Shown piece by piece: positions 13,306-34,921 of a DNA stretch of 64,000 nucleotides; position 1 is the stretch's first letter, and every line of letters starts with the position of its first letter. A program made the translations under genes and the position numbers. Below the pieces are notes generated by a model. It searched no databases, was not told the DNA's origin, and saw only the letters and a list, made by a program, of their open reading frames with translations. The stretch comes from an uncultured Leptospira sp. (GTDB lineage Bacteria; Spirochaetota; UBA4802; JAGODF01), in the NCBI GenBank assembly GCA_964502925.1, contig CAZCYH010000017.1, forward strand, positions 1,755 through 65,754, in the 5' to 3' direction.

Positions 13306-13428
13306 GAGATCCTCCCCTAAAGAAGTTTTCCATCATTTTACAAAATCAAAACACTACAATAAATCGCATTTTAAAAATAATCTCTGCAGCAACGGCAGGG
13401 ACATTCAACAGAAAATTTTGCGTATTCA

Positions 13429-16400: not shown

Positions 16401-16695
16401 TCGAATGAGAATACCCGAAGCTCGGATATTCTTTGTTTACCGGCAAAAATTGCAGACCAATATCTTCACGTAGAATATCTTTCAATTCAAGGCGCGCGCT
16501 TTCGTCAATCAAGTATTCAAGATGAACTCCGAGAGGCTTTCCGCTAAAACCATCATTCAGGACAAACGGCTCTGGAAGAGCATGCGCCAGAAGCGGAAAG
16601 AAAACCGAAATCGAAATAACAAACACTTTCAGGCACAATCGCATGAGAAACGCGCCGTTGAATATTGCCACTTTTCTTTTTTTGTGCTCCGACAT
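13429..16695 (-). CDS. Hybrid sensor histidine kinase: 7TMR-DISM extracellular domain, 7TM region, PAS domains, HisKA, HATPase and a C-terminal receiver.
   Basis: Periplasmic N-domain and about seven TM helices. H-box GIAHDFNNLLTAI, ATPase N/G boxes and a receiver (LLMDDEE...DIVIMDLTVPGGMGG) are all present. The start may be the internal Met of the signal peptide (MRLCLKVF). Confidence 0.85.
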   Translation of the reverse strand: MSEHKKRKVAIFNGAFLMRLCLKVFVISISVFFPLLAHALPEPFVLNDGFSGKPLGVHLEYLIDESARLELKDILREDIGLQFLPVNKEYPSFGYSHSTFWFRLKVHNPFPQSRKWILEYNYPIIDLVEVFLPGPRGFIRHQGGDSVPFSSREIKCRSIAFPVIQPPGESTIYLRVKSEGSITVPLEAHEPEDFSWRVQFELALLFLHYGIMFALFIYNFFIFLSYRERSYLFLALFIAAVTLFSMAQNGISFQFLWSNAIRWSNISNPFFLFLTVVFALAFSRSFLRMESEIPRFDAFARYFMYLNILLLVFPFFGEYHIATQVSTAFAGVTVLFFIISGSILMYKKDRAAIFLMSAWSAFIVGAALTALRAFGLTTSGAISMWGYQAGASIMALLLSFGVADQLKRLRQEREKALSALKESEEKYRALVENAREGILLIVDETVRYANRSFIEMTGYSESELYTVDIFKQIFPPQPDGTNPVFSNYLSRIEGNAAQEQYEARIKSKEGKDVDVFISAVAISTEGKTGTLLIVTNISTLKKAEKTILQQFEEIHSQYEELEALNEELVNTQNELLEANDSLAKEREKLSITLRSIADSVVTTDISGAITYMNPSAERLTGCLLENAEGKRFSDIFSFVMMHASTEKVDPVHEIVAEGHLENSNMLLGVPGRESIVVELSGAPLRDKSGNITGAVLALRDITARQKLEQEISKINRLESLGVLAGGIAHDFNNLLTAILANASMLKTKKTIDEKFNRMISMIEKAGERAVNLTRQLLTFARGGNPVKKSVSIMALLRESIELTLTGSNCLCEVVNVTPEAQLWSLVLDSGQISQVFNNLLINAIQAMPSGGKIKVMISNSRAPEGLPLREGRYVRLDFIDEGEGISEENIGKIFDPYFTTKDRGYGLGLATCYSIIKKHEGYIHVQSRHGSGSTFTVYLPSYEAAEKKENQKNDAKTFEAKYRVLLMDDEEYILDSLSSILESFGHECDTARDGREALEKFKLSLQEGKPFDIVIMDLTVPGGMGGKDAAIEFGKITPRPVLIVSSGYYGDPVLARPGEYGFDGIILKPYSRDDVISAIAMIMAKKNE

Positions 16696-17353: not shown

Positions 17354-18313
17354 TCACAGTACGAATTTATATATACACCTTCCTTCATAGACCCCGGTAT
17401 TGACGAAGAGGTCTCTGATGCCGGCAGGAATGAAGCGCTCCATCTCTTCAGTGAGCAACAGGTCTCCCGGCCTGGCGAATTTCTGACCTAAATGGTAGAG
17501 CGAATTTATTGAATCGGAAATAATCGTGCCGGTCTCCCCCCGGGACCGATATACCGTATTGCCCAGATGCATCGCGATCCGATACGATACTGTAAGTCCA
17601 AGCCTGCACTCCTCGGTGCTGATGATGGTGCGGTTTATCTGCATGCGCACCGCGGCAAGGACCGCCTCGCATTTTTCGCCGTCGAAAGGAATCAGCACCA
17701 GGCCGCCGAAGCCCGACCAGATCCAGACGCGACCTTTTAATGGCGCAATAGTTCTTTCAAGAAAATCATGAACGATTTGAGATCGTTCCTTTAGCTGTTT
17801 ATCGCTCGCGTTTTTTTTAAGTTCCGCTTGATTATCCATCTCGAAATACATCAGGCAGAAGGTGTATTCTTTGCCTTCGTTCACAGTGCTCCAATCGCTT
17901 CCAGATGGAATGTACGATGATGCATTCTCATTCGATGCTTCTTCCGGCACTTCAATGGTTCGAAAAGAAGCCACACGCAGAAGGCGCGAAACCGCCACGG
18001 GAGACTTTACAAATTCTGTGCCAAGATAATCCGCTCCGCCGCGGTGAAAAAGATCGGCAGGATCTTTAATTATGCCTTTGGGATCAATAATACCCCACAG
18101 AATTTGTTTTTGCTCTTCAAAGAGTTTTATTATTTTTTTTTCTTCACCGAGCTTGCCGATTGAAATATCCACATAGACCAGGGAACCCGCGGAAAGGGAT
18201 GCGATATCATTTTTCAATTTTGCGATTTCAATATACTCCACCGAAGCATCTTTTTTCTTAATTTTCGAAAAAATCGGATGTGGTTTCCCATTTCCAAAAA
18301 CATACACGCGCAT
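17354..18313 (-). CDS. Class III nucleotidyl cyclase (CHD)-like domain protein, paralog A. It has degenerate metal-binding positions and an uncharacterised N-terminal domain.
   Basis: The C-terminal 170 aa align to the cyclase-homology-domain pattern (FCLMYFEMDN...GRVWIWSGFGG...RIAMHLGNTVY...SDSINSLYHLGQ). The two canonical Asp positions are replaced by E and F. Confidence 0.4.
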   Translation of the reverse strand: MRVYVFGNGKPHPIFSKIKKKDASVEYIEIAKLKNDIASLSAGSLVYVDISIGKLGEEKKIIKLFEEQKQILWGIIDPKGIIKDPADLFHRGGADYLGTEFVKSPVAVSRLLRVASFRTIEVPEEASNENASSYIPSGSDWSTVNEGKEYTFCLMYFEMDNQAELKKNASDKQLKERSQIVHDFLERTIAPLKGRVWIWSGFGGLVLIPFDGEKCEAVLAAVRMQINRTIISTEECRLGLTVSYRIAMHLGNTVYRSRGETGTIISDSINSLYHLGQKFARPGDLLLTEEMERFIPAGIRDLFVNTGVYEGRCIYKFVL

Positions 18314-19285
18314 CTATTTTTCTCCTGCAAAGCGATAAGTGTACAGTTTCATCTTCTCCGGACTATTGATTACCTTGAATTCACAGGCAATGATGTCATC
18401 AAGGGTGGTGTATACCACCTCGCTGATCGTCAGAGAATTCGGGTTCGTATAGAGCGACTCGTACTGAATGGTTTTCCTCACCGGATCTAATTTTTTCAAT
18501 TCCTCCTCGCTGTCGCTGTAGTCGCAATTGCCGCAGTGGATAGCCAATCGCACCCGGAGCGGTTCACCCAGCCTGCAATGAAGGCGGTTGTACAGAAAAA
18601 GCTCGTGAAGAATTTCCATTCCAGAGGTGACTGCCATCTGGTTTTTATGCGAAAAATAAAACGCGATGAGCCCTCCGTCTCCTTCCCAGCTCCAGATGCG
18701 CCCGTTGCGGGAATAAATCGCGGCTTTCACGATTTCGCCGAAATCGCTGTAGGTATAATTGACCATTTCTGCACTGTATTTCCGCACGAGTTTCGAATTT
18801 CCCACAATATCGAAACGCAGGAATGTGAGGACGTATTCATAGCCCTCGCGGAGCACGCCCCAGTTGCGGGTCCTCCGCACTGACTGGTCCTCGACAAACA
18901 GCTTATTGTGCGAATCATACACGAAGCCGTGCTCACGCATTTCCTTCACGATATCGTGCAAATAGGCAATGTCGTATTGTTTTCCCATCCATCCGCGGTT
19001 TGATATTTCCACTAAAATATTCACAAATTGAGGGAAGAGTGCGGAATCGTTGATGTCGTAGATTATCTGACGCGCGGCGTCAAGGTTGGGAATTGAAATA
19101 CTGTGAGGAAATCCTGTTCTCTGGTTCAAATCATAGTTCGGAAGCAACCTTTTAACCAAATGTTCCATGGTATGGACATTCATCGACTGCGCGAGAGATC
19201 GAATTGCGATGTTTAGAAGGCTCGGTTTAACTTTCATACCATCTCCTACCCGTGCATTGCGATGATGCAAACGGGCAAATACCAT
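18314..19285 (-). CDS. Class III nucleotidyl cyclase (CHD)-like domain protein, paralog B. It retains both putative metal-binding Asp residues.
   Basis: Clear paralog of 17354..18313 (FLRFDIVGNS...GRIWSWEGDGG...RLAIHCGNCDY). The stop of B abuts the start of A. Confidence 0.4.
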   Translation of the reverse strand: MVFARLHHRNARVGDGMKVKPSLLNIAIRSLAQSMNVHTMEHLVKRLLPNYDLNQRTGFPHSISIPNLDAARQIIYDINDSALFPQFVNILVEISNRGWMGKQYDIAYLHDIVKEMREHGFVYDSHNKLFVEDQSVRRTRNWGVLREGYEYVLTFLRFDIVGNSKLVRKYSAEMVNYTYSDFGEIVKAAIYSRNGRIWSWEGDGGLIAFYFSHKNQMAVTSGMEILHELFLYNRLHCRLGEPLRVRLAIHCGNCDYSDSEEELKKLDPVRKTIQYESLYTNPNSLTISEVVYTTLDDIIACEFKVINSPEKMKLYTYRFAGEK

Positions 19286-19363
19286 GTCAAGGATTAATCA
19301 TATTATACCACTATGAAAGTATTTTTGTTGATACACACACATGAATACTCGTACAATGGCCGT

Positions 19364-20248
19364 ATGAAATCCGTACTGTACCTCTTTGCATGTTTGATAA
19401 TTATTCCTGCGCTACTGGCGCAACCAACCTTCGCATCAGAGTTCATGCTGGCCGATCCGAATATCGCTTTAACATGCATCGAGTATTCCGGCACGCCCGC
19501 GGCGAAAATTGGCGATCTCTTCCGCTGGGGAAATATCAGCATCGGGGGATTCCTGCAATCTCGAAACGAGGAGCGCTTCCACCAGGGCGCGCTGCCGAAT
19601 CACAACTGGCGGGGATTTGCGTTTTTGAATTATACCTATTCTCTTCCGGCATGGGGATCTTTTTCTCCTGCGCTGATTATGGGCGTTGAACATGAAAGCG
19701 CGCACCCAAGCGGCGGTTTTTACGAAAATAACGATGAAGCCTATGAGATGATATATGATGGCCTCTACCGCAACATCAATATGAATTCAATTCGCCTATC
19801 GCCGATGTTGAGCCTCTTCAACGGCATAGCACACCTGCGGTTGGACTATCAGCTCTATCTGTTCTCGAAAAATACTCCCGAGTTGCACGATACCGCGCTT
19901 GCTCACGGGAACGGCCTTTCAGGGGGATTCGACGGCATATTCCCGCTCTCGCAGGACTACGCATTTTTCATCTCGGCGTTTTTCCGATATATTTTTACAA
20001 GCAGTGCGCGCAGAAGCGACTGGATTTACCATAATCATAACGGCACCGTGGTGCAAATATATGAGGAGTATCCCGTAATAAATTCCGTACACACTATTTC
20101 TCTTAAAGCAGGCATAATAGTCCCGCACATCGCGCAGAGAAGAACGCTTTCTCTGTTTGCGCGCCTTTTGCACGGCAATCCATACGGGTTTATCGACAGT
20201 CGGGAAAACCGCTTCGTGATTGCGGTGGGGGTGGAGTTGATGCACTAA
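19364..20248 (+). CDS. Secreted hypothetical protein with a signal peptide, possibly an outer-membrane beta-barrel. Start chosen at MKSVLYLF.
   Basis: Signal peptide MKSVLYLFACLIIIPALLAQPTFA. Rich in aromatic and Gly residues. The HES-containing segment GVEHESAHPSGG weakly resembles the OMPLA active-site region; this is not conclusive. Confidence 0.45.
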   Translation: MKSVLYLFACLIIIPALLAQPTFASEFMLADPNIALTCIEYSGTPAAKIGDLFRWGNISIGGFLQSRNEERFHQGALPNHNWRGFAFLNYTYSLPAWGSFSPALIMGVEHESAHPSGGFYENNDEAYEMIYDGLYRNINMNSIRLSPMLSLFNGIAHLRLDYQLYLFSKNTPELHDTALAHGNGLSGGFDGIFPLSQDYAFFISAFFRYIFTSSARRSDWIYHNHNGTVVQIYEEYPVINSVHTISLKAGIIVPHIAQRRTLSLFARLLHGNPYGFIDSRENRFVIAVGVELMH

Positions 20249-20277
20249 AAAACCGCCCCTTCCGAGGCGGCTTTTAC
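20247..20277 (+). terminator. Rho-independent terminator between convergent genes.
   Basis: aaaaaaccgcccc-ttcc-gaggcggctttt. Confidence 0.6.
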
Positions 20278-20302
20278 CGTAAGAGTGGTTAATCTGTGTG
20301 TA

Positions 20303-21190
20303 TCAATACCCTTTGTTCTTGAGATCCTTTACCATATCAACATACCAGGCTTCGACATCAGCCCCGGGGGTGATACCAAAGAAGTGGTTCACCGCATTGA
20401 TATGTGACACGCCGCCGGCATTATACCACGAACCGGTCCAGGTGCCGCGGAAGGTTCCCCATTTCGCCGAATTCACCGACACAAGGCCATCGTTAGCACC
20501 TTCATAGAAGTTCAAAAGCAACCATGTGCCTTCGAGCACCATATCGGCAGTGATTGTGTAGATGCGCGTTGCCCAACTCTGATAGTACACGCCACTCATA
20601 TTGGGAGTATTGGGGTTGAAAACATTAATCATATAGCTGCGGACAAGATTATGGCCGTTTTGTGCACTCTGCGGATCTGAATCGCCAAGAAACTTATATA
20701 CGATATCAAGGATGCCGCCAACCAGCCACTCGCCAGAATCGGGGAGAATGCCCATAATCACATCGGCAATCGCGCTTCCTCGATGCGGGCTGCACAGGGT
20801 GGTGAGGCTTGCAACCTTTGACGCAAGGCCTAAATTGGAAATGGCATAGCGCGTATAGATCCCGCCGTGGGAATGGCCGATGATATTGCCGCGCGACGCG
20901 CCGGTTACCGCGAGAAATTCAAGGAACTGCCGTTTGAATTGCGCTGCCTTGTTGGCGGTAGTATCCATCGCATTGACCGATGCCACATACACCGTTGCGC
21001 CATTATCTTCGAGGTCATCGACGATGTCCCACCAGTAATCGATGCCAAGCATCCCGTCGGAAAATGCCATACCATGCGCAAGCACGATTGGGTAGCGCGT
21101 CTGACATGCCGTGTTTGAGCCGCCGGCGAACGCAAGAACTGGAATAAACGCAAACATTGCAATGAGTGAAATGATACTTATTTTTTTCAT
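20303..21190 (-). CDS. Secreted triacylglycerol lipase, alpha/beta hydrolase.
   Basis: Signal peptide, then an HG oxyanion motif (VLAHGM) and a GHSHGG nucleophile elbow typical of bacterial family I lipases. Confidence 0.8.
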   Translation of the reverse strand: MKKISIISLIAMFAFIPVLAFAGGSNTACQTRYPIVLAHGMAFSDGMLGIDYWWDIVDDLEDNGATVYVASVNAMDTTANKAAQFKRQFLEFLAVTGASRGNIIGHSHGGIYTRYAISNLGLASKVASLTTLCSPHRGSAIADVIMGILPDSGEWLVGGILDIVYKFLGDSDPQSAQNGHNLVRSYMINVFNPNTPNMSGVYYQSWATRIYTITADMVLEGTWLLLNFYEGANDGLVSVNSAKWGTFRGTWTGSWYNAGGVSHINAVNHFFGITPGADVEAWYVDMVKDLKNKGY

Positions 21191-21343
21191 AAAAAATCCC
21201 CCCGCGTATATGACCTTTATACCAAACCGTCCATTCGGTATGGTAAGAATATACTGATACAGGGCATTCGATTCTTATCAAAATCCGCAAAAACTAAAAA
21301 TGAGGGGGTTTTTCAAAAAAAAAGTGATAAAATAGGGAAATAT

Positions 21344-21361
21344 GTGAACATACGTTCACAG
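21344..21361. promoter_or_regulatory. Perfect 18-bp palindrome TGTGAAC-ATAC-GTTCACA in the lipase upstream region, just 3' of the large regulator gene.
   Basis: Seen directly in the sequence. It could be an operator or part of a terminator hairpin. Confidence 0.3.
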
Positions 21362-21389
21362 TAAGTCTATATAATGTAGTAATACTCGA

Positions 21390-24300
21390 TCATTTTCCCC
21401 CTTTGGTTTTTCGGTATTCTTGTGGCGAAATCCCCATTATTTTTACGAACGCACGATTGAAGGTAGAGAGGCTTTCAAACCCAACCGCATAGGCAATATC
21501 AATTATCTTTTCTTTGCTTTCAGCCAGCTTCTTTGCGGCATCTTCCACCCGCAGCCTGTTGATATAATCACCAATTTTTTCACCGGTAATCGATTTAAAT
21601 GCCTTGCCGAGATGATCGGGATTGATATTCAATGAAGCGGCAAGCCCCTCGCGAGAGACATCAGAAGTATAATTTTTCTTGATGTATTCAATCGCTTTAT
21701 GCACCTTCTGTTCGGTTGCGATCGAAAAAAGTTCCTTGGGGAATTGTTCCTTCAATTCAACCGGCTGAACACTGCCGAGTGCTTTTGCTACAATCACAAG
21801 GAATGAACCAATAGCACGTATGTCTTTTTTGTCGGCATTATCATCTTCGAAGGTGGTTTCAACCAGACACATGCCTAAGGTTTTCCTTTCTCTCAAAAGC
21901 GGAAATGCTGTGTAATGTGACAATGAGATTGGATCGGCTTCATCACGATGAGCAGGTTTTTCTTCTCTCTTAATTTCATGATACAATTCCTCGAGTCGTG
22001 CGCGTTCGATTCCTTTCGACGACAGGATATCAAAGCTTTTCTCTCCTTCGTATATCACAAAAACACAGCCCGCACGCGCACCTACAAAATCCATCACAGC
22101 CACAAGCGCGGTTTCAGCAATATCTCTCGCTTCTTTCTTTTCAAGAATTTGGCGCCCGATTTGCGCAAGCAAGGCATGCCGCTCCTTACTGAAATATCGC
22201 TCCAAGGGCGTTTTCTCATCCTTAACAGAAATGCCCAGAAGCCGTGAGAGCCGGGACACATATTGTTCCGAACCGATTTCCACACTCAACCGATACGCTT
22301 CCTCGAATACAGCATGCGCGGTCGAAGCTTCCCCCTTTTTGAGATGATAGTTCCCTATTTCCACCATCGTCCGAAGCTGTTCAAACGGCCGGTTGTGTCT
22401 GCACGCGTGCTCTTTCGCCTTTTGAAAAAGCTCATACGCGATGCGATGTTTTCCCTCACGTTCCACTGCGCACGCATGTACGCGTAGCGCAGCCCCATGA
22501 TGCGTCGGCCACGCGCGAGTTTTCGCAACTGCAACTTCGCACGCGCGAAGCATTTTTTTCATCAGAGATGCCCTATCACGCTTTGAAACTTGTCCCCCTC
22601 TGGCGTCATACTCATCGATATACGCCTGCCCAAGATTCACATAGACTGGAACGATGTACTGCTTTAAAAACGAGTGCTTTTCATGCGGCCCTCTGGCTTC
22701 TTCAAGATATTCAATCGCGCGTTCGAAATTCCCCGCTTCGAGTTCATTGCATCCAAGTTCATTGAGCGCGGAACAGAAATTGAACCAAATACCCCGGCTT
22801 TTGCTCAAATCGGCTGCGCGCTTCACGAATTCCACTGCTCTGTTCGCATTTCCCCTCTCCCTGTGATATTGCGAATAATAGATGAGCGCCGCGCCTTCGG
22901 AATATTCATCACCAAGACGGCTGACGAGTTCATAATACTCATCATTTATTTGAATAGCTCGCGCATATTCTCCCCGATAGTAATGGCAATGTTCAAGTCC
23001 ATTCAGCGTCATTGCATATTCTTTGATATCGCCAAGCTCGTGAAATATCCTTTTCGCTTCTTCGAAATACTCAATCGCTGTTTCGTATTCAGCCCGCCAC
23101 TCGTAATAGTACCCCATAAACTCGAGCGACTTTGCAAGTCCCCAGCGATTGCCCAAGTTCTCGTTCATTTGCCGCGCTTTCCGAAGATACTTCAAAGCAA
23201 TGTCAAAAAGGGGAATGGAAATATAGAGTGCACCAACTCCATAATAGCTCAACGCCAGTTCGGAAGAAGCGCCGATGTACCGCTCGGAAATATTGAGCGC
23301 GTGAATATTCGACCACACGAGCTTTAATGGGTCGTTGAGAGCATAGCTCATCCCCAGCGGCTCATAAAATTCGATAATCTGGCGATAATGATCCGCATCA
23401 CTTCCTTGTTTTTTACGGACAAAGAAAAAAGGAAAAGCAAGATGAAGAAGATGTTTCATCGCTTCTTTTGCGAGGGCAAAAAATACCTGATTTTTCGTGC
23501 GCGGCACATAATCACCCAAAAGCGCAAGACCTTCCGCCGCATGCGTTTCGCAGCTTTTCCAGTCGGCTTTGCGATAGTGGGCCTGACACAATACGAGATG
23601 CGCACGAGCTCGTCGATCAATTTGTTTAATCACTGGCATGAGAGAATCCAGGATAGATATTGCTTCATCGTATTCGCCAATAATCACATCAACCGCAGCA
23701 AGCTCAAGCTTGCATTCGATCATCTGCTCATCATCCTTCCTTCCAAGCTCTCCAAGCATGGCAATCGTTTTATGAAAATAGCGGGCTGCATCGCGGTAGG
23801 CATAACGATCTTTCGCAAGCACCGCCGCGGGATACAGATACCGAACCGCACTGTTAAACTCACCTCCTTCTGAGTAATGATGCGCCATATCGAATATTGC
23901 TTTTTCTTTTTCAATCTCCTCCGCCTCGAGGGCATGAGCAATTTTCAGATGAAGCGCCTTTTTGTTCGTCGGATCTATGCGTTCAAGAAATATTTCCATG
24001 ATACGATCGTGCGAGAACTGAATCACATCGCTTTCCGGGACATCCTCTTTGAAAATGCGCAATTTCCGTGCAGCTTCAATTGCCGAAACACAAGCATTCT
24101 CTGGTATATTGAGCACTCTGGCTATGAAACGATAATCGATTGCTTTTCCGATAACTGCTGCGCACGCAATCACAGCTTCTTCGGTTTCATCGAGCAGCCT
24201 GGCGCTGTGAGCAAGTAAATCCAGGAGCGAATCGGGAATACTCTGTGCGTCTATGTGCTGTGTGTATTTCCATATTTTTCCATCAAACACAGCCATGCCG

Positions 24301-25985
24301 CCTTCGATGATATTTTTTAACACTGTTTTGGCGTACAGCGGATTTCCCTCACTTTTCTGATAGATAATATCCGCAATAGCCGCCACTGCATCCTCACTTT
24401 CTTCCATCATTTCCGCGACAAGCCCTCTGACTGCCAATGCATCAAGCGCATTCAGCCGTATGGAGATGCTCGCCGCATATGGCGCATTTGCCGGCGTAAG
24501 CTTTGCGTGTGATTCATCGCCCTCACGCGATGTCAGAAGAACCATCACGCGCGCTCGCTCGGTGATACTAATAAGTTCCGAGATCACACTGACACTCGCG
24601 GCGTCGATCCACTGCACATCGTCGATGAAAATAACAGCCGCAGAACCGAGGAGTTCAATTGAGCGCAAAAATCGCGCCAGGAGTATCCCGGCATTACGCG
24701 CGCTTTCTTCCATTTCTTCGTTTTTTAAAATAGCTGTATCCTCGAATACCTGCACAATGCCGGGTTGAATTTTCGCGATTAACTTCCGACAGGATGTCAT
24801 TTCTTTGGCAAAAAGCTCCCGGATTTTTGCCTTTGTATGTTCATCGGATGTCGCGTACAATTTTAACAATGAAGCGAAAAGGCCGTTCAATGCTTCGTAG
24901 GGAGTATTTGCTGATTCGCGATGGCATTTCGCTTCGAGAAAAACTCCGCCACGTTTTTCGACTTCAGTTTTAAACTCTTCGATGAGGCGGCTTTTTCCGC
25001 ACCCCGCTCGTCCTTTCACCTCAACAGATATTCCGCTTCCTTGCCGAACATCAGCAAATATTTTAATAAGGCGTTCCATTTCCGCTTTCCGCCCTACCAG
25101 CGATGCACGATAATTAAGCTGACGAACGCCGTCTTTCTGCCCAATGGCGAAACATCTCTTCCCCTCCAGAAACTGATCGAGATCGTACACCAGCGCCTCG
25201 GCGCGCCCATATCGATGTGAGGGCTCTTTTTTCAACAATCGCAAAACAATTGCTTCAAGCACTTCGGGAATGTCGGGATATATTTCCCGAACTGGTACGA
25301 CTTTTTCTGAAAAGCCCGTTGCGCCAAAATCGCTTTCTGAAAAAGGAAATTTTCCCGTCAGAAGCACGTACAGAAGAACTCCCAGAGAATATAAATCGCT
25401 CCTCTCATCAACTGGCCTCCTGATAAGTCCTCGCTGCTCTGGAGGCAGGAAGTCCAGCAATTCATGAAGCTGTTCAGCGGCATAATCATCAGGGTAATCG
25501 AGGATATGTGCGAAACCAAATCCCCACAGGAGTACTCTCTCGGCATCTATGAACACAAATTGTGGAGAAATCGCGCGGTGAATAACCCCTTTGAGGTGAG
25601 CATGAGCAAGTGCTTCGGCACTACATTTCACGATAGATACTTTCTTTTCAAGGGAGATGCTGAAAAACCCGTCTTTTGTAATATATTCCGCCAGTGATTT
25701 TCCCGCAAACGCCTCGGTGATGACATACGCCCGATCGAAAAAATCACCCGCCTCGATGATGCGAATGACTGAAGTATGATGAACTTCTTTCATTTTTGCA
25801 GCAATGCTTTTAAAGCGAATCACATCGCCGGGGCGGCGCGACATCACCGGTGCAGCAATCACAAATGCGTTCACATCGTTCCCGGCAATGATATCATGCC
25901 CAAAGTACCGAGTGAAGATAGGGTTTTCTGAAATTATTTCTTTCAGCAGATATTTTCCGTTAATAGTTTTTCCCAAGAATTCCAT
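21390..25985 (-). CDS. Large multidomain regulator: N-terminal Ser/Thr-kinase-like pseudokinase, AAA/STAND ATPase, TPR repeats, GAF-like domain and a C-terminal AraC-type HTH.
   Basis: Kinase fold with HRD changed to HRA (VIHRAISPQ) and DFG changed to GFG. Walker A reads GRAGCGKS. TPR-like repeats are long and helical. The C-terminus is AraC-like (IAYAVGFESLSTFNRAFVKIMGISPQEYRK). Confidence 0.8.
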   Translation of the reverse strand: MEFLGKTINGKYLLKEIISENPIFTRYFGHDIIAGNDVNAFVIAAPVMSRRPGDVIRFKSIAAKMKEVHHTSVIRIIEAGDFFDRAYVITEAFAGKSLAEYITKDGFFSISLEKKVSIVKCSAEALAHAHLKGVIHRAISPQFVFIDAERVLLWGFGFAHILDYPDDYAAEQLHELLDFLPPEQRGLIRRPVDERSDLYSLGVLLYVLLTGKFPFSESDFGATGFSEKVVPVREIYPDIPEVLEAIVLRLLKKEPSHRYGRAEALVYDLDQFLEGKRCFAIGQKDGVRQLNYRASLVGRKAEMERLIKIFADVRQGSGISVEVKGRAGCGKSRLIEEFKTEVEKRGGVFLEAKCHRESANTPYEALNGLFASLLKLYATSDEHTKAKIRELFAKEMTSCRKLIAKIQPGIVQVFEDTAILKNEEMEESARNAGILLARFLRSIELLGSAAVIFIDDVQWIDAASVSVISELISITERARVMVLLTSREGDESHAKLTPANAPYAASISIRLNALDALAVRGLVAEMMEESEDAVAAIADIIYQKSEGNPLYAKTVLKNIIEGGMAVFDGKIWKYTQHIDAQSIPDSLLDLLAHSARLLDETEEAVIACAAVIGKAIDYRFIARVLNIPENACVSAIEAARKLRIFKEDVPESDVIQFSHDRIMEIFLERIDPTNKKALHLKIAHALEAEEIEKEKAIFDMAHHYSEGGEFNSAVRYLYPAAVLAKDRYAYRDAARYFHKTIAMLGELGRKDDEQMIECKLELAAVDVIIGEYDEAISILDSLMPVIKQIDRRARAHLVLCQAHYRKADWKSCETHAAEGLALLGDYVPRTKNQVFFALAKEAMKHLLHLAFPFFFVRKKQGSDADHYRQIIEFYEPLGMSYALNDPLKLVWSNIHALNISERYIGASSELALSYYGVGALYISIPLFDIALKYLRKARQMNENLGNRWGLAKSLEFMGYYYEWRAEYETAIEYFEEAKRIFHELGDIKEYAMTLNGLEHCHYYRGEYARAIQINDEYYELVSRLGDEYSEGAALIYYSQYHRERGNANRAVEFVKRAADLSKSRGIWFNFCSALNELGCNELEAGNFERAIEYLEEARGPHEKHSFLKQYIVPVYVNLGQAYIDEYDARGGQVSKRDRASLMKKMLRACEVAVAKTRAWPTHHGAALRVHACAVEREGKHRIAYELFQKAKEHACRHNRPFEQLRTMVEIGNYHLKKGEASTAHAVFEEAYRLSVEIGSEQYVSRLSRLLGISVKDEKTPLERYFSKERHALLAQIGRQILEKKEARDIAETALVAVMDFVGARAGCVFVIYEGEKSFDILSSKGIERARLEELYHEIKREEKPAHRDEADPISLSHYTAFPLLRERKTLGMCLVETTFEDDNADKKDIRAIGSFLVIVAKALGSVQPVELKEQFPKELFSIATEQKVHKAIEYIKKNYTSDVSREGLAASLNINPDHLGKAFKSITGEKIGDYINRLRVEDAAKKLAESKEKIIDIAYAVGFESLSTFNRAFVKIMGISPQEYRKTKGGK

Positions 25986-26144
25986 ATCTTCTTCATCACA
26001 CAGATATTTATAATCACCGTTTATTGTAGCATATCGTAATTAAAATCACATTTTCGCAAAAAATCAAGAGATAAATATTGACGGGGCAAAGTTATCCTTT
26101 GCGGGGAGGTGCCGCTTGAAGAAATAGAGGATTTTTTATTGGTT

Positions 26145-26630
26145 TTAATGAGCGAATTCTGCGGCTAATAGCGCCGGATCGCTGGGCAATCCCCACCAGA
26201 TGTGAAACACCGTCGCTTCTTCTATACATTTATCATAAATTGCACAGTTTTTGTAGGGATAAGAATCCACTTCATCGTCATAGGCACCGCTTTCGATGCG
26301 CTCCACAAGCTCGGGTAAATATTCAAGCACCGCAATCGCAATCACATGCGAAATCGACCTTCTGAAAAACCTCCGCATATCATTAAAATAATCATATTCC
26401 CGTTCAAGGAATTTCACCTTTACCCGTACTTTCGGTATCGGCATGCCCTCGTTATCCAGGCGCTTCTGGTATGCAATTCTTCCATGCTCTCTTTCATACT
26501 TTGCGTGATGCCGCATTGCAGAGCGCATCACGGCTATAATTAAATCAACCATCGACCAGCCGGTGCGCTTCTCGGCGTCTTTGAGCATCATCATAATTTT
26601 CTTTGTCATCATATAGGTTGTTTTTATCAT
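26145..26630 (-). CDS. Hypothetical protein, 161 aa, full-length copy B of the inverted gene duplicate. Start chosen at MIKTTY.
   Basis: Good ribosome-binding site (GGAGGT-N6-ATG at 26630). The product is identical to copy A except for the terminal residue. Confidence 0.55.
   Translation of the reverse strand: MIKTTYMMTKKIMMMLKDAEKRTGWSMVDLIIAVMRSAMRHHAKYEREHGRIAYQKRLDNEGMPIPKVRVKVKFLEREYDYFNDMRRFFRRSISHVIAIAVLEYLPELVERIESGAYDDEVDSYPYKNCAIYDKCIEEATVFHIWWGLPSDPALLAAEFAH
26158..26588 (-). repeat. Right arm of the large inverted repeat; partner is 1..431.
   Basis: See the left-arm entry. Confidence 0.7.
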
Positions 26631-26875
26631 GACTCGACCTCCGTCAGGTAGAATTCCCATTATACGTGCGACAAAAACAACACTACATACGTATAGTATT
26701 TTTGCAAGCATAAAATTCTTCCCAGAACGTCATAGATTCGTTTCAAATGGAATTTGTGACACTCGTTAAAAAAATTCTCCTAACAAAAAAAAACACGAAA
26801 TCTTTATACATTTTTTTATGCTTGATATTATTTACAACGTCGTGCTGGATACTCAGACACACAAGAGGTTGAAAA

Positions 26876-27076
26876 ATGAATTCACCCTGGATACCCTATT
26901 TCTATCAGTATGGCATAAGCGGTATTGTTTTTTTCGCTGGCATCGCCATCGCACTTCGCACTCGTGCTCTCGACATGCGCTACGCTCATGAGCGCTGGAC
27001 GCTGGTGCAGCTTCTTGCGGGATTTGTGGCGATGATGACTCTGCATGGTGTGATGATTGCGGTTTCAGGTGTATGA
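26876..27076 (+). CDS. Small 2-TM membrane protein, putative sodium:solute symporter small subunit (DUF4212-like).
   Basis: 66 aa with two predicted TM helices. It overlaps the start of the SSS transporter gene by 20 nt. Confidence 0.5.
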   Translation: MNSPWIPYFYQYGISGIVFFAGIAIALRTRALDMRYAHERWTLVQLLAGFVAMMTLHGVMIAVSGV

Positions 27077-28898
27077 CATGATGCGCGGCACAACACTGGA
27101 TTTAATCGTCATCTTCGCCTATTTTATAGGAATATTAGGCTTCGGCGTCCTTTTCGGCAAGTACGCCCGCACCACGAAAGATTTCTTTTTTGGCGGCCAG
27201 CGCTTTAGCTGGTGGCTTATTGCCGCAAGCTGCATCGCCACCACGGTCGGTTCCTACAGCTTCATCAAATATTCCGCAGTGGGCTTCAGCTACGGGTTTT
27301 CTTCGACCATGGCATACATGAACGACTGGTTTCTTATGCCCCTTTTTGTACTTGGCTGGATGCCCATCATTTATTTTTCTCGCGTCGGCTCCATCCCTGA
27401 GTATTTTGAGCGCCGTTTCGACCGCAAAACTCGAATCGCAGGAACCATTGTGCTTCTCATCTATCTGGTGGGATATATCGGCATCAATCTCTACACCATT
27501 GGCGTGGCCTTTCACTCCATGCTCGGCTGGAATGTGATGACCACCGCAATAGTCGTTTCAATCATCTGCGCTGTGTATATGCATGCGGGGGGACAGACCT
27601 CCGTCATCATGACCGACCTTGCTCAAAGCGTTATCCTCATCTTCGCGGGGATTCTTGTGTTTATTCTCGGCCTTTCTGAAATCGGCGGATTTTCACGATT
27701 CTGGAATGCGCTCGAACCTTCGTTTCGCCTGCCCTTCACGGGTTTGCTGGAACCCGCGCGCTTCAGCACCGCTGGCATTTTCTGGCAGGACGCATTTGGT
27801 AGCTCCATCGCGTTTTATTTCATGAATCAGGGCGTGATTATGCGCTTCATGAGCGTGCGCTCGATGGTCGATGGGAAACGCGCGATTTTTGTTGTCGCCC
27901 TTTTCCTCATGCCACTTGCGGCCTTCGCTGTGGCAAATGCTGGCTGGATAGGCAGAGCAATGGTAAATATCGGGATGCTGCCGGGTGAGAGTGACCCAAA
28001 TCAGATTTTCGTCATCGTCGCCTCGAGGCTTGCCGCGCCGGGAGTGTTCGGATTCATTATGGCCGCCCTCACTGCTGCACTTATGTCCACAGTTGACACG
28101 CTGGTCAATGCCGTCACCGCCATCAGCGTCAATGACATTGTGAAGCATATCAAACCCGCGCGCGATGACGGGTATTATCTGAAATGGGCGCGGATAATAT
28201 CCCTTTTTACAGCTTTTTTTGGTGTGATTCTTGTACCCGTTTTCATGCGCTTCCAGTCCATCTATGTGGCGCACGGTGCGTTTACCGCCGCGGTAACCCC
28301 TCCAATGATTGTAGCCATCATCCTTGCGGCATTCTGGAAACGCTATACCTCCGCGGGAGCGTTCTGGACGATTGCAGGCGGCGGTATGTTTGTGGCACTT
28401 TCAATCAAGTTTCCCTGGCTCATCAAACCTTTCGCACACGGCATTGCACCGGAAGGATATGAATTTATGCGGGCACTGTACGGTATTGCAGTGTGCACCG
28501 CAATCGGCGTAACGGTGAGTTTTTTTACGAAACCTAAAAAACCGGAAGAACTCATCGGATTAGTCATCCATTCCCTTGATGAAGCCAAGCGCATTTTTAA
28601 AGGAGGAAAGCCCGCGCATGACCATGTGCCGGGCAAGCATATCACCGGCAGGCTACATTTTGCCGATATTGAAGGGGTTCGATTGAGCAGCAAGGCAATG
28701 GAGCGAATGAAAGCAGAGGAGGGCGACCTGCTCTATGTGGCCGATGCGCGCTGGTGGCTGGGTGGACTTCGCTCGGTACATGTGATTGCCGGAGCGCCGC
28801 ATGATGGCGACAACAAAGTGATATTTCTTTCCGAAAAAACAGCGACCGAGGGAAATTTGCATGCCGACAAGCGCGTGAAAGTGGTAAAAATTTTATAA
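27057..28898 (+). CDS. Sodium:solute symporter (SSS) family transporter with a roughly 100-aa C-terminal cytoplasmic extension.
   Basis: About 13 TM helices and SSS-like motifs. It is longer than typical SSS transporters (613 aa) because of a soluble C-terminal tail. Confidence 0.85.
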   Translation: MRFQVYDMMRGTTLDLIVIFAYFIGILGFGVLFGKYARTTKDFFFGGQRFSWWLIAASCIATTVGSYSFIKYSAVGFSYGFSSTMAYMNDWFLMPLFVLGWMPIIYFSRVGSIPEYFERRFDRKTRIAGTIVLLIYLVGYIGINLYTIGVAFHSMLGWNVMTTAIVVSIICAVYMHAGGQTSVIMTDLAQSVILIFAGILVFILGLSEIGGFSRFWNALEPSFRLPFTGLLEPARFSTAGIFWQDAFGSSIAFYFMNQGVIMRFMSVRSMVDGKRAIFVVALFLMPLAAFAVANAGWIGRAMVNIGMLPGESDPNQIFVIVASRLAAPGVFGFIMAALTAALMSTVDTLVNAVTAISVNDIVKHIKPARDDGYYLKWARIISLFTAFFGVILVPVFMRFQSIYVAHGAFTAAVTPPMIVAIILAAFWKRYTSAGAFWTIAGGGMFVALSIKFPWLIKPFAHGIAPEGYEFMRALYGIAVCTAIGVTVSFFTKPKKPEELIGLVIHSLDEAKRIFKGGKPAHDHVPGKHITGRLHFADIEGVRLSSKAMERMKAEEGDLLYVADARWWLGGLRSVHVIAGAPHDGDNKVIFLSEKTATEGNLHADKRVKVVKIL

Positions 28899-29567
28899 TT
28901 TTTTAATATTTTCGAGGCGCGGGAGAACTTCTTTATGAAAATCTGTCATGTTCGTTTCATTTGCATAGTCGCGATTGTGTATCTCTTGGCGATCGCATTT
29001 TGTTCATGCACGGAGAAATTATCGGGCGCTTACGAAAATGAATTGCTTTTCTGGAAGGAGCAGTCGCGAGCACACAAAATACTCAACGATGCCATTGCAG
29101 CGCAAACTCACGTCGTCCTGAGCAGTGGACATTGCTGATTTTCACCGGCGATCATGAAACCGGCTCACCTTCATTCAGCTATTATAAAACCGGGAGCAAA
29201 CTCTTTTTCAACAACAAACAGGCTTCGAACTATTCGTTCCCAATAATCGAATTGATAAAACCTTTCACCCGGCAGAAGCGATCAATACGATCAATTTTCT
29301 CGGAGGCTACATCACCGGAAGATCTGAGAAAAAAAAATTCACGAAAACATTTCAATAAAAATGACAGGCGATGATGCTGAGAAAACTTATGGGCACCTCC
29401 AAAAACTTTGATAAAAAGAAAGCGGTTTTACATATATATTGTGCTCCAGAGGGAATATCCTTTAAAACAGTTTGTAGAACTTCCCTCATAAAGCTATTGA
29501 AAGGCGAAATCCAAGATGCTGAGAAATTCACCCGCGTAAGCGATAAATCAATCACGCATTTCGGCAA

Positions 29568-33436: not shown

Positions 33437-34921
33437 ATGAGTGTACCGATTACCTACATTGACTTCTTGATGATTCTCGCCCTAACTTTGCTCGTATCCA
33501 TCGCAATCTCGGTGTATATCCATAACAGATTCAGCAACGTAAACCGGCTTTTTTCGCTTTTTATTCTCAATGTAACCGCCTGGCTCTTCCTGTCAATGAT
33601 CCATTTCTTGTTCAGACAGCACCTCGCCGTACTTCTGTCGTTTCAGACGGCCGTAGGCTCGTTTATGGGAATTACATTTTTCTATTTTGCCCTGGTTATC
33701 GTCGATGAACAGCATGTGAGACGACGCTGGGAAAATGCCCTCGCTATCGTACCCGCGGCAATTGCAGGATGGTATATCATTACCATCATCCACCCTGACC
33801 TCCTGGCGGATTTCAACGACCGTGTGCGCTATGAAGGGATTAAGCTTCATCGACCGGGAGACATGGCCTATTGGGCATACACGACGTGGCTTTTTTCAGC
33901 CTTCATTATGGGGTATGGCGTCCTCATATCCGGATTGCGCAGAAAAGGCGATACACAGGCGCGGAAACGCATTCGCAATGTCCTTTGGGCAAGCATACTT
34001 GGGCAGCTTACCACCTTGGGCATCAGTAACTTATCGTCAATTCTCGGTCTTGGCCAGCCTGGCTGGATCGCCTTGATGCCCATTCTGGCTTCTCTTTGCT
34101 GGATTGGTGTTTCAATCATCAGGGATAAGATATGGACGGTGGAATATCTTCTCGAAGTAATTCGGCAAAGCGAGGAAAAACTCGGCGAGCGCAACCGCAT
34201 TATCGAAGCTGACCTTGAGCTGGCTCGTCTGATTCAGAAAAAACTCCTCCCCGATAAGGTCCCACAGCTACCCGGTCTCGGAGTACACGCGGTGTATCTC
34301 CCGGTAGATAAAGTGGGTGGTGATTACTATGATTTCATCGTGGAACGTAACGTCCTGGGAGTTTTGCTTGCGGACGTAAGCGGCCATGGCATCGCAAGCG
34401 CATTTCTCTCTTCCATAATTAAAATGGGATTTAATTATCATGCAGGAAGCAACGGCCCCACGCTTTTTAAGACCCTGGACCGTCTCGTGGCCGAGAAAGG
34501 CGCTAATTCCATGTTCGCAACAGCAGTGTTCTGCAGAATTGATACCGACACCATGAGGCTTACAAGCTGCCGCGCCGGTCACTGCCCGCCACTTGTTATC
34601 AGGAGCGGTTCAGGAGAAATAGTGTCCATTGAAACGCCCGGCAGGGCATTGGGGATGAATCTGGGAGAGCCCCGTTACCAAATTGGTGAAATTGAGCTCT
34701 CTCGGGGTGACAGGATTTTTCTCTATACCGATGGTGTCACCGAAACAATAAACTCTGACAGGGCGCTTTTCGGCGAAGAACGGCTAAAGAATGCATTGCG
34801 TGAAGGGATGGGGTACGCGCTGGAAGAATTCTGCGAAAAACTTCTCGCTAAGCTAAAGGAATTTTCCGGGGACAATCCCCAAGTCGACGACATCACCATT
34901 ATAGCGGTGGAAGTAAAATAG
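33437..34921 (+). CDS. Membrane-anchored PP2C-type (SpoIIE/RsbU-like) serine phosphatase with a multi-TM sensor domain.
   Basis: About 7 TM helices at the N-terminus. C-terminal PP2C motifs GGDYYDF...LLADVSGHGIASAFL...LYTDGVTE. Confidence 0.8.
   Translation: MSVPITYIDFLMILALTLLVSIAISVYIHNRFSNVNRLFSLFILNVTAWLFLSMIHFLFRQHLAVLLSFQTAVGSFMGITFFYFALVIVDEQHVRRRWENALAIVPAAIAGWYIITIIHPDLLADFNDRVRYEGIKLHRPGDMAYWAYTTWLFSAFIMGYGVLISGLRRKGDTQARKRIRNVLWASILGQLTTLGISNLSSILGLGQPGWIALMPILASLCWIGVSIIRDKIWTVEYLLEVIRQSEEKLGERNRIIEADLELARLIQKKLLPDKVPQLPGLGVHAVYLPVDKVGGDYYDFIVERNVLGVLLADVSGHGIASAFLSSIIKMGFNYHAGSNGPTLFKTLDRLVAEKGANSMFATAVFCRIDTDTMRLTSCRAGHCPPLVIRSGSGEIVSIETPGRALGMNLGEPRYQIGEIELSRGDRIFLYTDGVTETINSDRALFGEERLKNALREGMGYALEEFCEKLLAKLKEFSGDNPQVDDITIIAVEVK

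Follow-up and report, generated by a model that had tools for sequence, protein, structure and literature searches.

A probable STAND-class regulator with a degenerate kinase domain and an AraC-type output, conserved beside a secreted lipase gene

The locus described here lies in a window of 64 kb, by which we mean the whole stretch of DNA that was analysed, and raises two questions: what is a protein that joins a kinase fold, an ATPase, helical repeats and a DNA-binding domain in one chain, and does it act on the lipase gene next to it? We regard the protein, which is bacterial and probably from a spirochaete, as most likely a cytoplasmic, nucleotide-switched one-component regulator of transcription in the MalT-like group of STAND proteins. 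Far from being a one-off, it has its place in a known class of regulators, in a branch that is fairly widespread though uncharacterised. To the reading as a whole, a STAND/MalT-like one-component regulator of lipase expression with a dead kinase domain, we assign a probability of about 0.6.

Domain organization of the regulator

21390..25985, minus strand: regulator gene, 1531 aa (pseudokinase, STAND NTPase, TPR, GAF-like, AraC), from the open reading frame and translation, Pfam/NCBIfam domains and full-length homologues
25146..25985, minus strand: kinase-fold domain, residues 1–280, without G-loop, Lys, alphaC-Glu, HRD-Asp, Asn and DFG-Asp, from PknB alignments and AF2 with Foldseek
24006..25118, minus strand: STAND nucleotide-binding oligomerisation module (NOD), residues 290–660, from AAA_16, the family alignment and Foldseek
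22236..24005, minus strand: TPR-like arm, residues 661–1250, about 28 helices (about 14 hairpins), the presumed sensor arm, from Pfam and AF2
21771..22178, minus strand: degenerate GAF-like domain with an internal deletion, residues 1270–1405, from a sub-threshold GAF_3 match, hhalign and AF2
21393..21725, minus strand: AraC/XylS-type double helix-turn-helix DNA-binding domain, residues 1421–1531, from Pfam and Foldseek

The preliminary description had proposed a 1531-aa open reading frame with this order of domains, and both proposals agree with the translation, the Pfam searches, the alignments and the AF2 models compared by Foldseek. Pfam placed Pkinase at residues 65–265 (6e-22), AAA_16 at 296–482 (4e-24), HTH_18 at 1448–1526 (5e-22) and TPR_12 in the arm. 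The gene has a dN/dS of ~0.20 and is therefore under purifying selection.

Judged by its motifs, the nucleotide-binding module appears intact: the Walker A motif GRAGCGKS (residues 325–332, DNA 24990–25013) is complete, Walker B reads FIDD, the GxP motif is GNP at 547–549 and the conserved His-Asp pair is at 659–660. K331, G547 and H659 do not vary across a family alignment of 40 sequences. Weaker NB-ARC, KAP and nSTAND matches accompany AAA_16, and the STAND+TPR crystal structure 6mfv matched the regulator model over 793 columns. The arm itself, whose modelled secondary structure has a pLDDT mostly above 85, also matched TPR_10 and, weakly, TPR_MalT, and at the sequence level the TPRs of LGN and Pins.

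The claim of a GAF-like module stands in part. No GAF domain reached the Pfam threshold in the regulator (GAF_3 scored 19.7 bits against a cut-off of 27, E 1e-3), but hhalign related the region to the genuine GAF domains of related proteins (97.4%, E 1.3e-11) and AF2 gave it an alpha/beta fold. Constraint on the protein is weakest here, with a dN/dS of 0.5 at residues 1301–1400, and the degenerate module may bind nothing. The C-terminus is of AraC type, as had been proposed: HTH_AraC was matched (4e-13) besides HTH_18, and Foldseek returned MarA, the AraC DNA-binding domain, AdpA and SoxS with TM 0.7–0.88.

The kinase-like domain and its family

Three independent alignments of the kinase motifs, by MAFFT against Mtb PknB, by HMMER against S. 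aureus PknB (4eqm) and by AF2 with Foldseek, are concordant. The glycine loop is gone, the VAIK Lys is replaced by Phe and the alphaC Glu by Ile, HRD reads HRA, DFG reads GFG, and in the catalytic loop Lys has become Ser and Asn has become Phe. The claim that this is a pseudokinase (HRA, GFG, no VAIK lysine) thus survives realignment to PknB. The fold is recognizable, the model matching Stk1, PknB, PknA and PknI with TM 0.8–0.88. The domain is predicted to be incapable of canonical phosphotransfer, yet it has been kept under purifying selection, with a dN/dS of ~0.24 across residues 1–280.

That constraint, together with an invariant C-lobe core (APE, DERSDLYSLG, RY), could also reflect a living but non-canonical enzyme that modifies the regulator or a partner, either with its catalytic residue at another position, as in WNK, or by AMPylation or glutamylation as in SelO and SidJ; some proteins at first termed pseudokinases have turned out to possess atypical activities. 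We consider this very unlikely, given that in the six closest homologues non-equivalent residues (Phe, Ile, Ala, Phe, Gly) have taken the place of the whole set of G-loop, Lys, Glu, Asp, Asn and Asp, and that clade members have lost differing subsets of these residues, which is a pattern of decay and not of a new active site.

The dead kinase and the AraC output had both been called unusual, and neither is. Of 120 Pkinase–AAA_16 homologues, only 60 keep Lys, Asp, Asn and Asp; the other half lack one or more of these catalytic residues. About 24 distinct full-length homologues with an AraC output were found among species-representative genomes, nearly all of them Spirochaetota (MAGs). By our own count, pseudokinases are commoner in these AraC-output members than elsewhere in the family: the four residues are kept in ~5 of the 24, versus 60 of 110 non-AraC homologues.

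The regulator–lipase pair

20303..21190, minus strand: secreted family I.1-type triacylglycerol lipase, 295 aa, from PDB relatives and cluster name

The lipase gene lies downstream of the regulator gene on the same strand, as the preliminary description had it, at a distance of 199 bp. Its product carries a signal peptide, and the nucleophile elbow reads GHSHGG; the closest PDB relatives are the lactonizing lipase 9g8u, 1ex9 and Burkholderia lipases (E 1e-25 to 1e-30), and its protein cluster is named “triacylglycerol lipase”. The Asp of NDGLV and the C-terminal His were identified by eye on the alignment with PDB relatives.

A link between the two genes had been suggested, and it is now much stronger because the pair is conserved in five unrelated genomic contexts that have nothing else in common: the window with L001, L003 and L007 (regulator identity 83–55%), L059 (42%), L004 (35%), L010, L011 and L021 (33%), and L056 (36%), where the gene order is lipase-Lif-regulator. 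The lipase-linked regulators, all pseudokinases, form one clade in an NJ tree.

The two partners evolve at different rates, the lipase with a dN/dS of 0.015 versus 0.20 for the regulator, which is thus ~13 times faster at the protein level. Regulator identities of 83/59/55% set against 88–98% for the neighbours, a STAND+TPR architecture and PADLOC matches to PD-T4-6, mad6 and PglW might suggest an NLR-like or anti-phage sensor in an arms race. This is extremely unlikely: the PADLOC matches span the kinase fold only, the output is a DNA-binding domain and not a toxic effector, dN/dS is 0.1–0.5 throughout and exceeds 1 in no segment, and on the chromosome the regulator stays stably paired with a metabolic exoenzyme.

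The intergenic region

21191..21389, minus strand: regulator–lipase intergenic region, 199 bp, from locus alignments
21343..21360, no strand: palindrome TGTGAAC-GTAT-GTTCACA, 16/18 symmetric, 7-bp arms, 4-nt centre
21273..21285, minus strand: conserved box GATTTTGATAAGA with a TTGAYRAG core, invariant in five aligned loci
21226..21239, minus strand: inverted repeat ACCGAATGGACGGT (ACCG-N6-CGGT), from a search with the pattern ACCRNNNRGAHGGT

With a mean column identity of 80%, the intergenic region is more conserved than the regulator gene itself (only 55–59% identical). An Rfam search of it matched no family. The preliminary description had placed a perfect 18-bp palindrome at 21344–21361; the repeat starts one base earlier and is imperfect. 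In favour of its being the operator by which the regulator acts on the lipase are an intergenic location, a right arm inside the invariant block GTATGTTCA (21345–21353) and one compensatory left/right change in L001. However, the window holds 75 inverted repeats of this quality (~36 in shuffles), only the right arm is conserved, the left arm having been lost in L003, L007 and L059, which retain both lipase and regulator, and the palindrome is absent at the distant lipase-linked loci. It could equally be a weak terminator, because it lies 29 nt past the regulator stop codon (153 nt before the lipase ATG) and T-rich sequence follows, with a predicted RNA hairpin of only -8.1 kcal/mol. We therefore think an operator role for the palindrome quite unlikely.

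Two other elements are better conserved. The GATTTTGATAAGA box, relatives of which (TTGAYRAG/ATGAYA) occur in L056, L004 and L010/11/21, is a candidate activator site or -35-proximal element. The ACCG-N6-CGGT repeat precedes every regulator-linked lipase (L001-5, 7, 8, 10, 11, 21, 56 and 59); in the window its distance to the lipase ATG is 36 nt, or 49 nt counted from the first base of ACCGAATGGACGGT. It also flanks the regulator gene, on the upstream side in L013 and on the downstream side in L056. The sites read by AraC domains are usually asymmetric, and the palindromic form of this element counts against its being the regulator's site. It may lie at or after the transcription start (the promoter position is a guess), where a repressor or another factor would suit better. 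Both the regulator–lipase pairing and an upstream DNA motif are conserved across distant relatives.

The true targets could instead lie elsewhere, in the divergent small-subunit/SSF symporter operon, in the regulator's own gene or at distant genes, with the lipase a mere syntenic neighbour. L009 (regulator identity 48%) keeps the regulator beside the divergent SSF transporter gene (83% identical) and has no lipase, so that other or additional targets are possible, and no lipase lies near ~13 more distant homologues with an AraC output. But SSF adjacency is confined to the closest, genus-level group, whereas the pairing with the lipase survives where every other neighbour has changed; upstream of the regulator gene itself conservation is lower (59%) and the motifs are absent; and no second good box-1 site was found within the window. 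We thus hold a target elsewhere to be unlikely. Conserved adjacency and conserved non-coding DNA suggest that the AraC-type end most likely controls the adjoining secreted lipase gene.

Proposed mechanism

At rest the regulator would be closed, with ADP in the NOD. The TPR arm, the degenerate GAF module or both would sense a signal, plausibly tied to lipid or fatty-acid availability, and so allow nucleotide exchange and oligomerisation. The AraC domains would then be clustered on conserved elements of the 199-bp region upstream of the lipase and switch its transcription, activation being more likely than repression. The dead kinase domain would serve as a scaffold or regulatory surface and would be left over from an ancestral kinase effector, no longer needed when DNA binding had become the output.

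Comparison with known systems

In MalT and the large ATP-binding LuxR (LAL) regulators, as in our protein, a NOD ATPase is followed by a helical arm, by TPR/SUPR-type sensor repeats and, at the C-terminus, by a domain that binds DNA. In MalT, inducer and ATP are established to bring about oligomerisation and then promoter binding, and by analogy the same inducer/ATP-dependent logic may be expected here. PMC9045387 cites Danot et al. (2009) in this connection. The likeness to MalT/STAND lies in the weak TPR_MalT match and the structural match to 6mfv, the NOD having no sequence-level relative with a solved structure. Unlike MalT/LAL, whose DNA-binding domain is LuxR/GerE, the regulator ends in an AraC-type domain, which a GAF-like module precedes, and has in addition a kinase fold at its N-terminus.

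The window lipase aligns over its whole length with the Pseudomonas/Burkholderia family I.1/I.2 lipases (LipA, with the Lif foldase). A Lif-type chaperone (PF03280) follows the lipase in L056, and no Lif homologue was detectable within the 64-kb window. The known regulators of the Pseudomonas/Burkholderia lipases are two-component, sigma-54 or quorum-sensing systems, and to our knowledge no STAND-AraC protein is among them.

The DNA-binding subtype recurs in Spirochaetota GAF-AraC, 7TMR-DISM-GAF-AraC and TPR-AraC regulators (P0131, P0135, P0137, P0132, P0134; 50–64% identical), and the GAF-AraC junction is common to the regulator and P0131, P0132, P0135, P0137 and P0147. Stand-alone Spirochaetota AraC regulators, in contrast, have 260–610 aa and lack the kinase-fold and STAND modules. 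From residue 1 to ~1400 the regulator is homologous to a wider Pkinase-AAA_16-(TPR)-GAF-output family (24–31% identity, same domain order), in which degenerate kinase motifs are likewise frequent and the shared scaffold carries His-kinase (HisKA/HATPase), GGDEF/EAL, class III cyclase, PP2C/SpoIIE, sigma-54 EBP, LuxR, LytTR or SARP outputs. What sets its branch apart is the AraC end, an almost exclusive occurrence in Spirochaetota MAGs and the lipase-tied sub-clade.

At the level of architecture the regulator also resembles PknK of M. tuberculosis, a soluble Ser/Thr kinase with a fused STAND region, which phosphorylates the AraC-family regulator VirS of the lipid-modifying mymA operon and so raises its affinity for the mymA promoter (PMC4601284, PMC3544749). 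PknK is catalytically active and lacks a DNA-binding domain. In the regulator described here the kinase is dead, and a PknK-like N-terminal architecture is joined covalently to an AraC domain in one polypeptide, whose gene adjoins that of a lipid-hydrolysing enzyme.

Domain anatomy of the regulator

The regulator is encoded by a single long ORF, and its translation, searched against Pfam and NCBIfam, upheld the coordinates, the strand relation to the neighbouring lipase gene and the domain order given in the preliminary description. Its features, including those of the nucleotide-binding oligomerisation module (NOD), are as follows.

21390..25985 (−): regulator ORF, 1531 residues
Residues 65–265: Pkinase (Pfam, 6e-22)
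Residues 5–277: longer kinase match (NCBIfam)
Residues 296–482: AAA_16 (Pfam, 4e-24), with weaker KAP, NB-ARC and nSTAND matches
Residues 325–332: Walker A, GRAGCGKS (NOD)
Residues 451–456: Walker B, VIFIDD (NOD)
G547-N-P549 and H659-D660: GNP motif and His-Asp pair (NOD)
Residues ~910 to 1100: TPR_12, TPR_10 and TPR_MalT (Pfam)
Residues 1448–1526: HTH_18 (5e-22) and HTH_AraC (4e-13) (Pfam)

K331, G547 and H659 of the NOD do not vary across 40 aligned sequences of the wider family, and the motifs G547-N-P549 and H659-D660 are likewise invariant. By analogy, G547-N-P549 would represent the GxP of the winged-helix region and H659-D660 would contain an MHD-like histidine; with these putative assignments the regulator carries the sequence hallmarks of a STAND NTPase of the MalT/AAA_16 clade, namely Walker A and B, GxP, the histidine and C-terminal repeats.

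Residues 1–1200 were modelled in AlphaFold2 (AF2) with a pLDDT of 86.3 and a pTM of 0.77. The repeat region of the model consists of ~28 helices in ~14 TPR-like hairpins and reaches residue 1196, and a Foldseek search matched NOD and repeats to the STAND+TPR crystal structure 6mfv over 793 columns. Searched by sequence, no solved structure came nearer to the NOD and repeats than generic TPR proteins. A second AF2 model (residues 1236–1531) shows a confident AraC domain following an alpha/beta module, and Foldseek superposes this domain on MarA, SoxS, AdpA and the DNA-binding domain (DBD) of AraC. Together with the HTH_18/HTH_AraC matches this establishes the C-terminus as AraC-type, with two HTH motifs in a domain of ~100 residues, as had been proposed. 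Pfam found no GerE (LuxR-type HTH) domain in the protein.

A kinase fold without the canonical active site

The kinase motifs were aligned in three ways, by MAFFT against PknB from M. tuberculosis, by HMMER against PknB/Stk1 from S. aureus, and by AF2 with Foldseek, and the three independent alignments agree on what has changed. The glycine loop GxGxxG reads SENPIF where PknB has GFGGMS. Phe replaces the VAIK Lys and Ile the alphaC Glu, so that the salt bridge pair is gone; HRDxKPxN has become HRAISPQF, with loss of both the HRD Asp and the catalytic-loop Asn, and DFG has become GFG, replacing the magnesium-binding Asp. Realignment to Hanks kinases thus yielded no canonical active kinase, and the HRA, GFG and missing VAIK lysine of the preliminary description are all real.

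The fold itself is retained. Residues 1–280 of the model can be superposed on Stk1, PknB, PknA and PknI with TM scores of 0.8–0.88 (AF2 and Foldseek); 10 homologues share an unchanging C-lobe core (PPEQ, DERSDLYSLG, RY), APE and alphaF helix included; and dN/dS of the kinase-like part is ~0.24. Because the catalytic motifs are replaced, yet the fold is kept, the C-lobe is invariant and dN/dS is low, the domain is a conserved kinase fold that has lost its canonical active site and, by sequence criteria, a predicted pseudokinase.

A GAF-like module ahead of the DNA-binding domain

The GAF-like module described earlier holds as a matter of fold and homology, but does not match at the curated Pfam threshold (GAF_3 scores 19.7–19.9 bits; cut-off 27). 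Even a weak GAF-family match is found in just 4 of the 7 clade members scanned. The region aligns with the above-threshold GAF domains of 30%-identical full-length homologues, and a profile–profile comparison (hhalign) with the GAF domains of GAF-AraC relatives that pass Pfam gave a probability of 97.4% (E 1.3e-11). In the AF2 model the module runs helix, two strands, helix, strands, helix; no direct GAF fold match occurs among the Foldseek matches listed, where AraC matches dominate. The module lacks an internal segment through a deletion, and no other stretch of the regulator is under less constraint (dN/dS 0.5).

Distribution of the architecture

The regulator is one of a very large family of proteins in which the domains run Pkinase, AAA_16, (TPR), GAF, output, and in which the output may be, among others, a His-kinase, GGDEF/EAL, class III cyclase, PP2C, sigma-54 EBP, LuxR, LytTR or SARP domain. 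Within it, the regulator represents a branch of the STAND kinase-like proteins that has an AraC output and is uncharacterised. Neither of the two traits previously singled out as unusual stands apart in this setting. The Lys, HRD Asp, Asn and DFG Asp are all kept in just 60 of the best 120 homologues, which makes degenerate kinase domains ordinary in the family. As for the output, a scan of one genome per species returned ~24 distinct proteins of full length that carry the same AraC domain at the C-terminus, nearly all from Spirochaetota MAGs (Leptospirales included) and one from a Desulfobacteraceae MAG. The four catalytic residues persist in ~5 of these 24 by our count, versus 60 of 110 proteins with other outputs, a difference that fits catalysis being dispensable where the output is DNA binding.

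Databases label the AraC-output homologues “AAA family ATPase” or [quoted passage not shown], and the regulator's own protein cluster carries no name; an exact search with the protein matched no recorded contig. Its nearest relatives come from an “uncultured bacterium” MAG (83%) and Spirochaetes MAGs, several relatives apparently being digester or sludge MAGs according to database records. Literature searches for the architecture returned no relevant paper within the collection covered. Since short GAF-AraC, 7TMR-DISM-GAF-AraC and TPR-AraC proteins carry the same DBD subtype, the C-terminal half of the regulator looks like a one-component module grafted onto a STAND scaffold. A 1533-residue ORF at 4572–9173, suspected of being a paralogue, turned out to be glutamate synthase.

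Conserved pairing with a secreted lipase

The gene that follows the regulator on the same strand is a lipase:

20303..21190 (−): lipase gene, 199 bp downstream of the regulator; 295-residue alpha/beta hydrolase

Among solved structures it comes closest to the lactonizing lipase of Pseudomonas and to lipases of Burkholderia (E 1e-25 to 5e-30), and the GHSHGG nucleophile elbow was confirmed by aligning it with 9g8u and 1ex9. In our reading of the sequence the Asp and His partners of the triad and an N-terminal signal peptide appear to be present as well. The adjoining, same-strand, secreted lipase of the preliminary description is thereby borne out, the ORFs and alignment settling position and family and the signal peptide being read by eye. 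JGI names its 90% cluster triacylglycerol lipase. No homologue of the Lif foldase was detected in the 64-kb window, so the enzyme may fold without Lif or use a distant or unrecognised foldase.

Loci with regulator homologues in other genomes repeat the pairing.

Regulator–lipase arrangement by locus (regulator identity to the window)
L001/L008: 83%, lipase directly after
L003: 59%, lipase directly after
L007: 55%, lipase directly after
L059: 42%, lipase directly after
L056 (1812–3866): 36%, order lipase, Lif-type chaperone (PF03280), regulator
L004: 35%, lipase directly after
L010, L011, L021: 33%, lipase directly after

In a further locus (L050) the lipase lies 2 kb downstream of the regulator. 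An all-against-all comparison identified regulator and lipase as the only genes common to these contexts, and the lipases are of two types, 27–30% identical to each other, both found next to regulators of this clade. By neighbour joining, all lipase-linked regulators fall into a single clade whose members all have a degenerate kinase; basal AraC-output members retain K/HGD/N/DFG, and one (L028) looks intact. One regulator inside the clade (L009, 48%) has kept the neighbouring SSF transporter and lost the lipase. No lipase was found near the more distant AraC-output members. Control of the lipase is a well-supported but putative role of the regulator.

Unequal evolutionary rates

Rates were compared among closely related genomes, the window and loci L001, L003 and L007.

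Protein identity, window vs L001/L003/L007
SSF transporter: 96/92/88%
Nitroreductase: 96/91/88%
Lipase: 98/98/94%
Regulator: only 83/59/55%

Against L001, dS is alike for transporter, regulator and lipase (0.40–0.47). In the same comparison the regulator has a dN/dS of 0.20, the transporter one of 0.05 and the lipase one of 0.015. The second lipase group has the same asymmetry, L004 and L010 sharing 72–79% identity in the lipase and 37% in the regulator. No 100-codon window of the regulator approaches a dN/dS of 1. The regulator is under relaxed but real constraint, with neither decay nor detectable positive selection.

Non-coding DNA between regulator and lipase

A perfect 18-bp palindrome had been placed at 21344–21361, in the lipase promoter region. 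The repeat in fact lies one base away and is imperfect:

21343–21360: palindrome TGTGAACGTATGTTCACA, 8/9 pairs complementary

It begins 29 nt past the regulator stop codon. A custom count gave 75 inverted repeats of this quality in the window versus ~36 in shuffles, and a repeat search (seed 6) missed it. Its left arm is unconserved in L003, L007 and L059, and as RNA it folds with only −8 kcal/mol. Imperfect, matched by common repeats of comparable quality and unconserved in one arm, it is not supported as the lipase operator.

Conservation in the spacer lies elsewhere. The 199 bp show 80% mean column identity where the regulators are 55–59% identical, and several blocks are kept even in the 42%-identical locus L059:

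21345–21353: GTATGTTCA, which includes the right arm of the palindrome
Within the 199-bp spacer: TCACTTTTT
21273–21285: GATTTTGATAAGA
21222–21239: ACCGAATGGACGGTTTGG, with the inverted repeat ACCG-N6-CGGT (21226–21239)

The AraC domain of the regulator would bind one of these blocks, any choice among them being provisional; the TTGATAAGA box upstream of the lipase is a candidate activator site or −35-proximal element. The pattern ACCRNNNRGAHGGT occurs upstream of the lipase in all lipase-linked loci, including those with 33–36% identical regulators. ACCG-N6-CGGT also lies ~80 nt upstream of a regulator paralogue gene in L013 (3909–3922) and, in L056 (8741–8754), 90 nt downstream of the regulator and before a PAS-HD (HD_5) gene, which suggests that it belongs to a regulon of this regulator family extending beyond lipases. 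Extra ACCRNNNRGAHGGT matches at 21703 and 50698 are both inside coding sequence, the latter encoding a peptide read as SGNTEET, and were treated as chance; by our estimate the ~0.9 Mb of loci should contain ~5 matches by chance, enough to explain the other intragenic ones.

The repeat could instead act as an RNA hairpin. Its folding energy is strong in L010 (−19 kcal/mol) and moderate in the window (−15 kcal/mol), and L004 forms no hairpin; there is no informative covariation in the ACCG..CGGT stem. Given this uneven support, a DNA-level site is favoured. A search of Rfam over 19000–29000 (E<=1) gave no match, so a known riboswitch or leader does not explain the conserved spacer. A consensus scan of the spacer found no convincing promoter or terminator, and placement of sigma-70 elements by eye left a 22–23-bp spacer between TTGAYR and TAnAtT and no confident promoter position. 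Upstream of the regulator gene itself there is no shared box.

Neighbouring genes

The remaining surroundings of the pair are:

10243–16695 and 33437–34921: signalling-dense regions with a PAS-PP2C (SpoIIE) protein, a 7TMR-DISM hybrid histidine kinase and a second SpoIIE phosphatase
17354–18313 and 18314–19285 (−): tandem genes of 319 and 323 residues, no Pfam family
19313–20248 (+): 311-residue protein, apparent signal peptide, no family match, convergent to the lipase
26145–26711 (−): 188-residue ORF, no family, between the SSF operon and the regulator
~26876–28898 (+): small membrane ORF and 613-residue sodium:solute symporter, divergent from the regulator side

Such a density of signalling genes is presumably typical of free-living Spirochaetota. 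The tandem genes, syntenic in L003 and L007, have weak PADLOC matches to the Pycsar cyclase PycC (E 2.5e-9 and 5e-3) and may encode nucleotide-cyclase-like proteins; a cyclic-nucleotide link from them to the GAF-like module of the regulator is pure speculation. The 311-residue protein is conserved at 83/75/71% in L001, L003 and L007 and could be an envelope protein tied to lipase export or lipid uptake. As only the window and L001 have the 188-residue ORF (89% identical), and L003, L007 and L009 lack it, it looks like a recent insertion. The pairing of membrane ORF and symporter is kept in L001, L003, L007 and L009, making it a possible second target of the regulator.

Proposed mechanism and origin

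MalT-type STAND regulators, reportedly reviewed by Danot and colleagues in 2009, switch by an established inducer and nucleotide logic. By analogy, the most likely mechanism of the regulator is a four-step switch of the same kind: at rest the protein would be closed and ADP-bound; the TPR arm, the GAF-like module or both would perceive a signal; nucleotide exchange would follow, and then oligomerisation; and the clustered AraC domains would bind the lipase upstream region cooperatively. The domain architecture, the loss of the active site, the selection on the protein and the conserved gene pair with its motif are shown by the analysis; that the regulator acts on the lipase, in which direction and with what ligand, is inferred. 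For the dead kinase domain the best explanation is that a relic of an ancestral effector has been kept as a structural or regulatory surface.

A more far-reaching origin, which we consider unlikely, is that the clade is a natural Rosetta-stone fusion of a PknK-to-VirS-type pathway followed by stepwise kinase decay. An ancestral STAND kinase that phosphorylated an AraC regulator would have been fused covalently to a GAF-AraC module; phosphotransfer would then have become redundant and the catalytic residues would have decayed stepwise, from K/HGD/N/DFG in basal members through GFG to the lipase-linked clade, where none is left; the fold would have persisted as an allosteric or oligomerisation surface. 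If true, the family would be a tractable model of the change from kinase to pseudokinase, and a dedicated lipid-responsive lipase switch in Spirochaetota would be defined.

If the MalT-like switch with its relic kinase domain holds, it would give a first functional handle—a target gene and candidate DNA sites—on a large unstudied Spirochaetota signalling class, a clean natural series in which a kinase domain loses catalysis yet keeps a role in a STAND switch, and a possible control point of lipase production in lipid-degrading anaerobic communities.

Comparison with known systems

PADLOC returned no full-length match to a defence system: PD-T4-6, mad6 and PglW match only the kinase domain (residues 1 to ~280). 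As these matches cover the kinase fold alone, we rejected assignment of the regulator to a recognised defence system. The lipase shares the GHSHGG elbow with the family I.1/I.2 lipases of Pseudomonas and Burkholderia, but not their adjacent Lif gene. MalT/LAL regulators probably work in a like manner, by analogy, although the LuxR/GerE-type HTH that defines them is absent here; PMC9045387 cites Danot et al. (2009) on STAND regulators.

A further parallel is PknK from M. tuberculosis, which phosphorylates the AraC regulator VirS and so raises transcription of mymA, a lipid-modifying operon (PMC4601284, PMC3544749). PknK is a soluble kinase with a STAND region, an architecture similar to that of the regulator. 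PknK and VirS are separate partners and the kinase is active, whereas in the regulator the two functions are seemingly fused and the kinase is dead. A Rosetta-stone relation of the regulator to PknK and VirS is suggestive by analogy, and the domain fusion would lend support to the functional coupling of PknK-type STAND kinases to AraC regulators that is described from M. tuberculosis.
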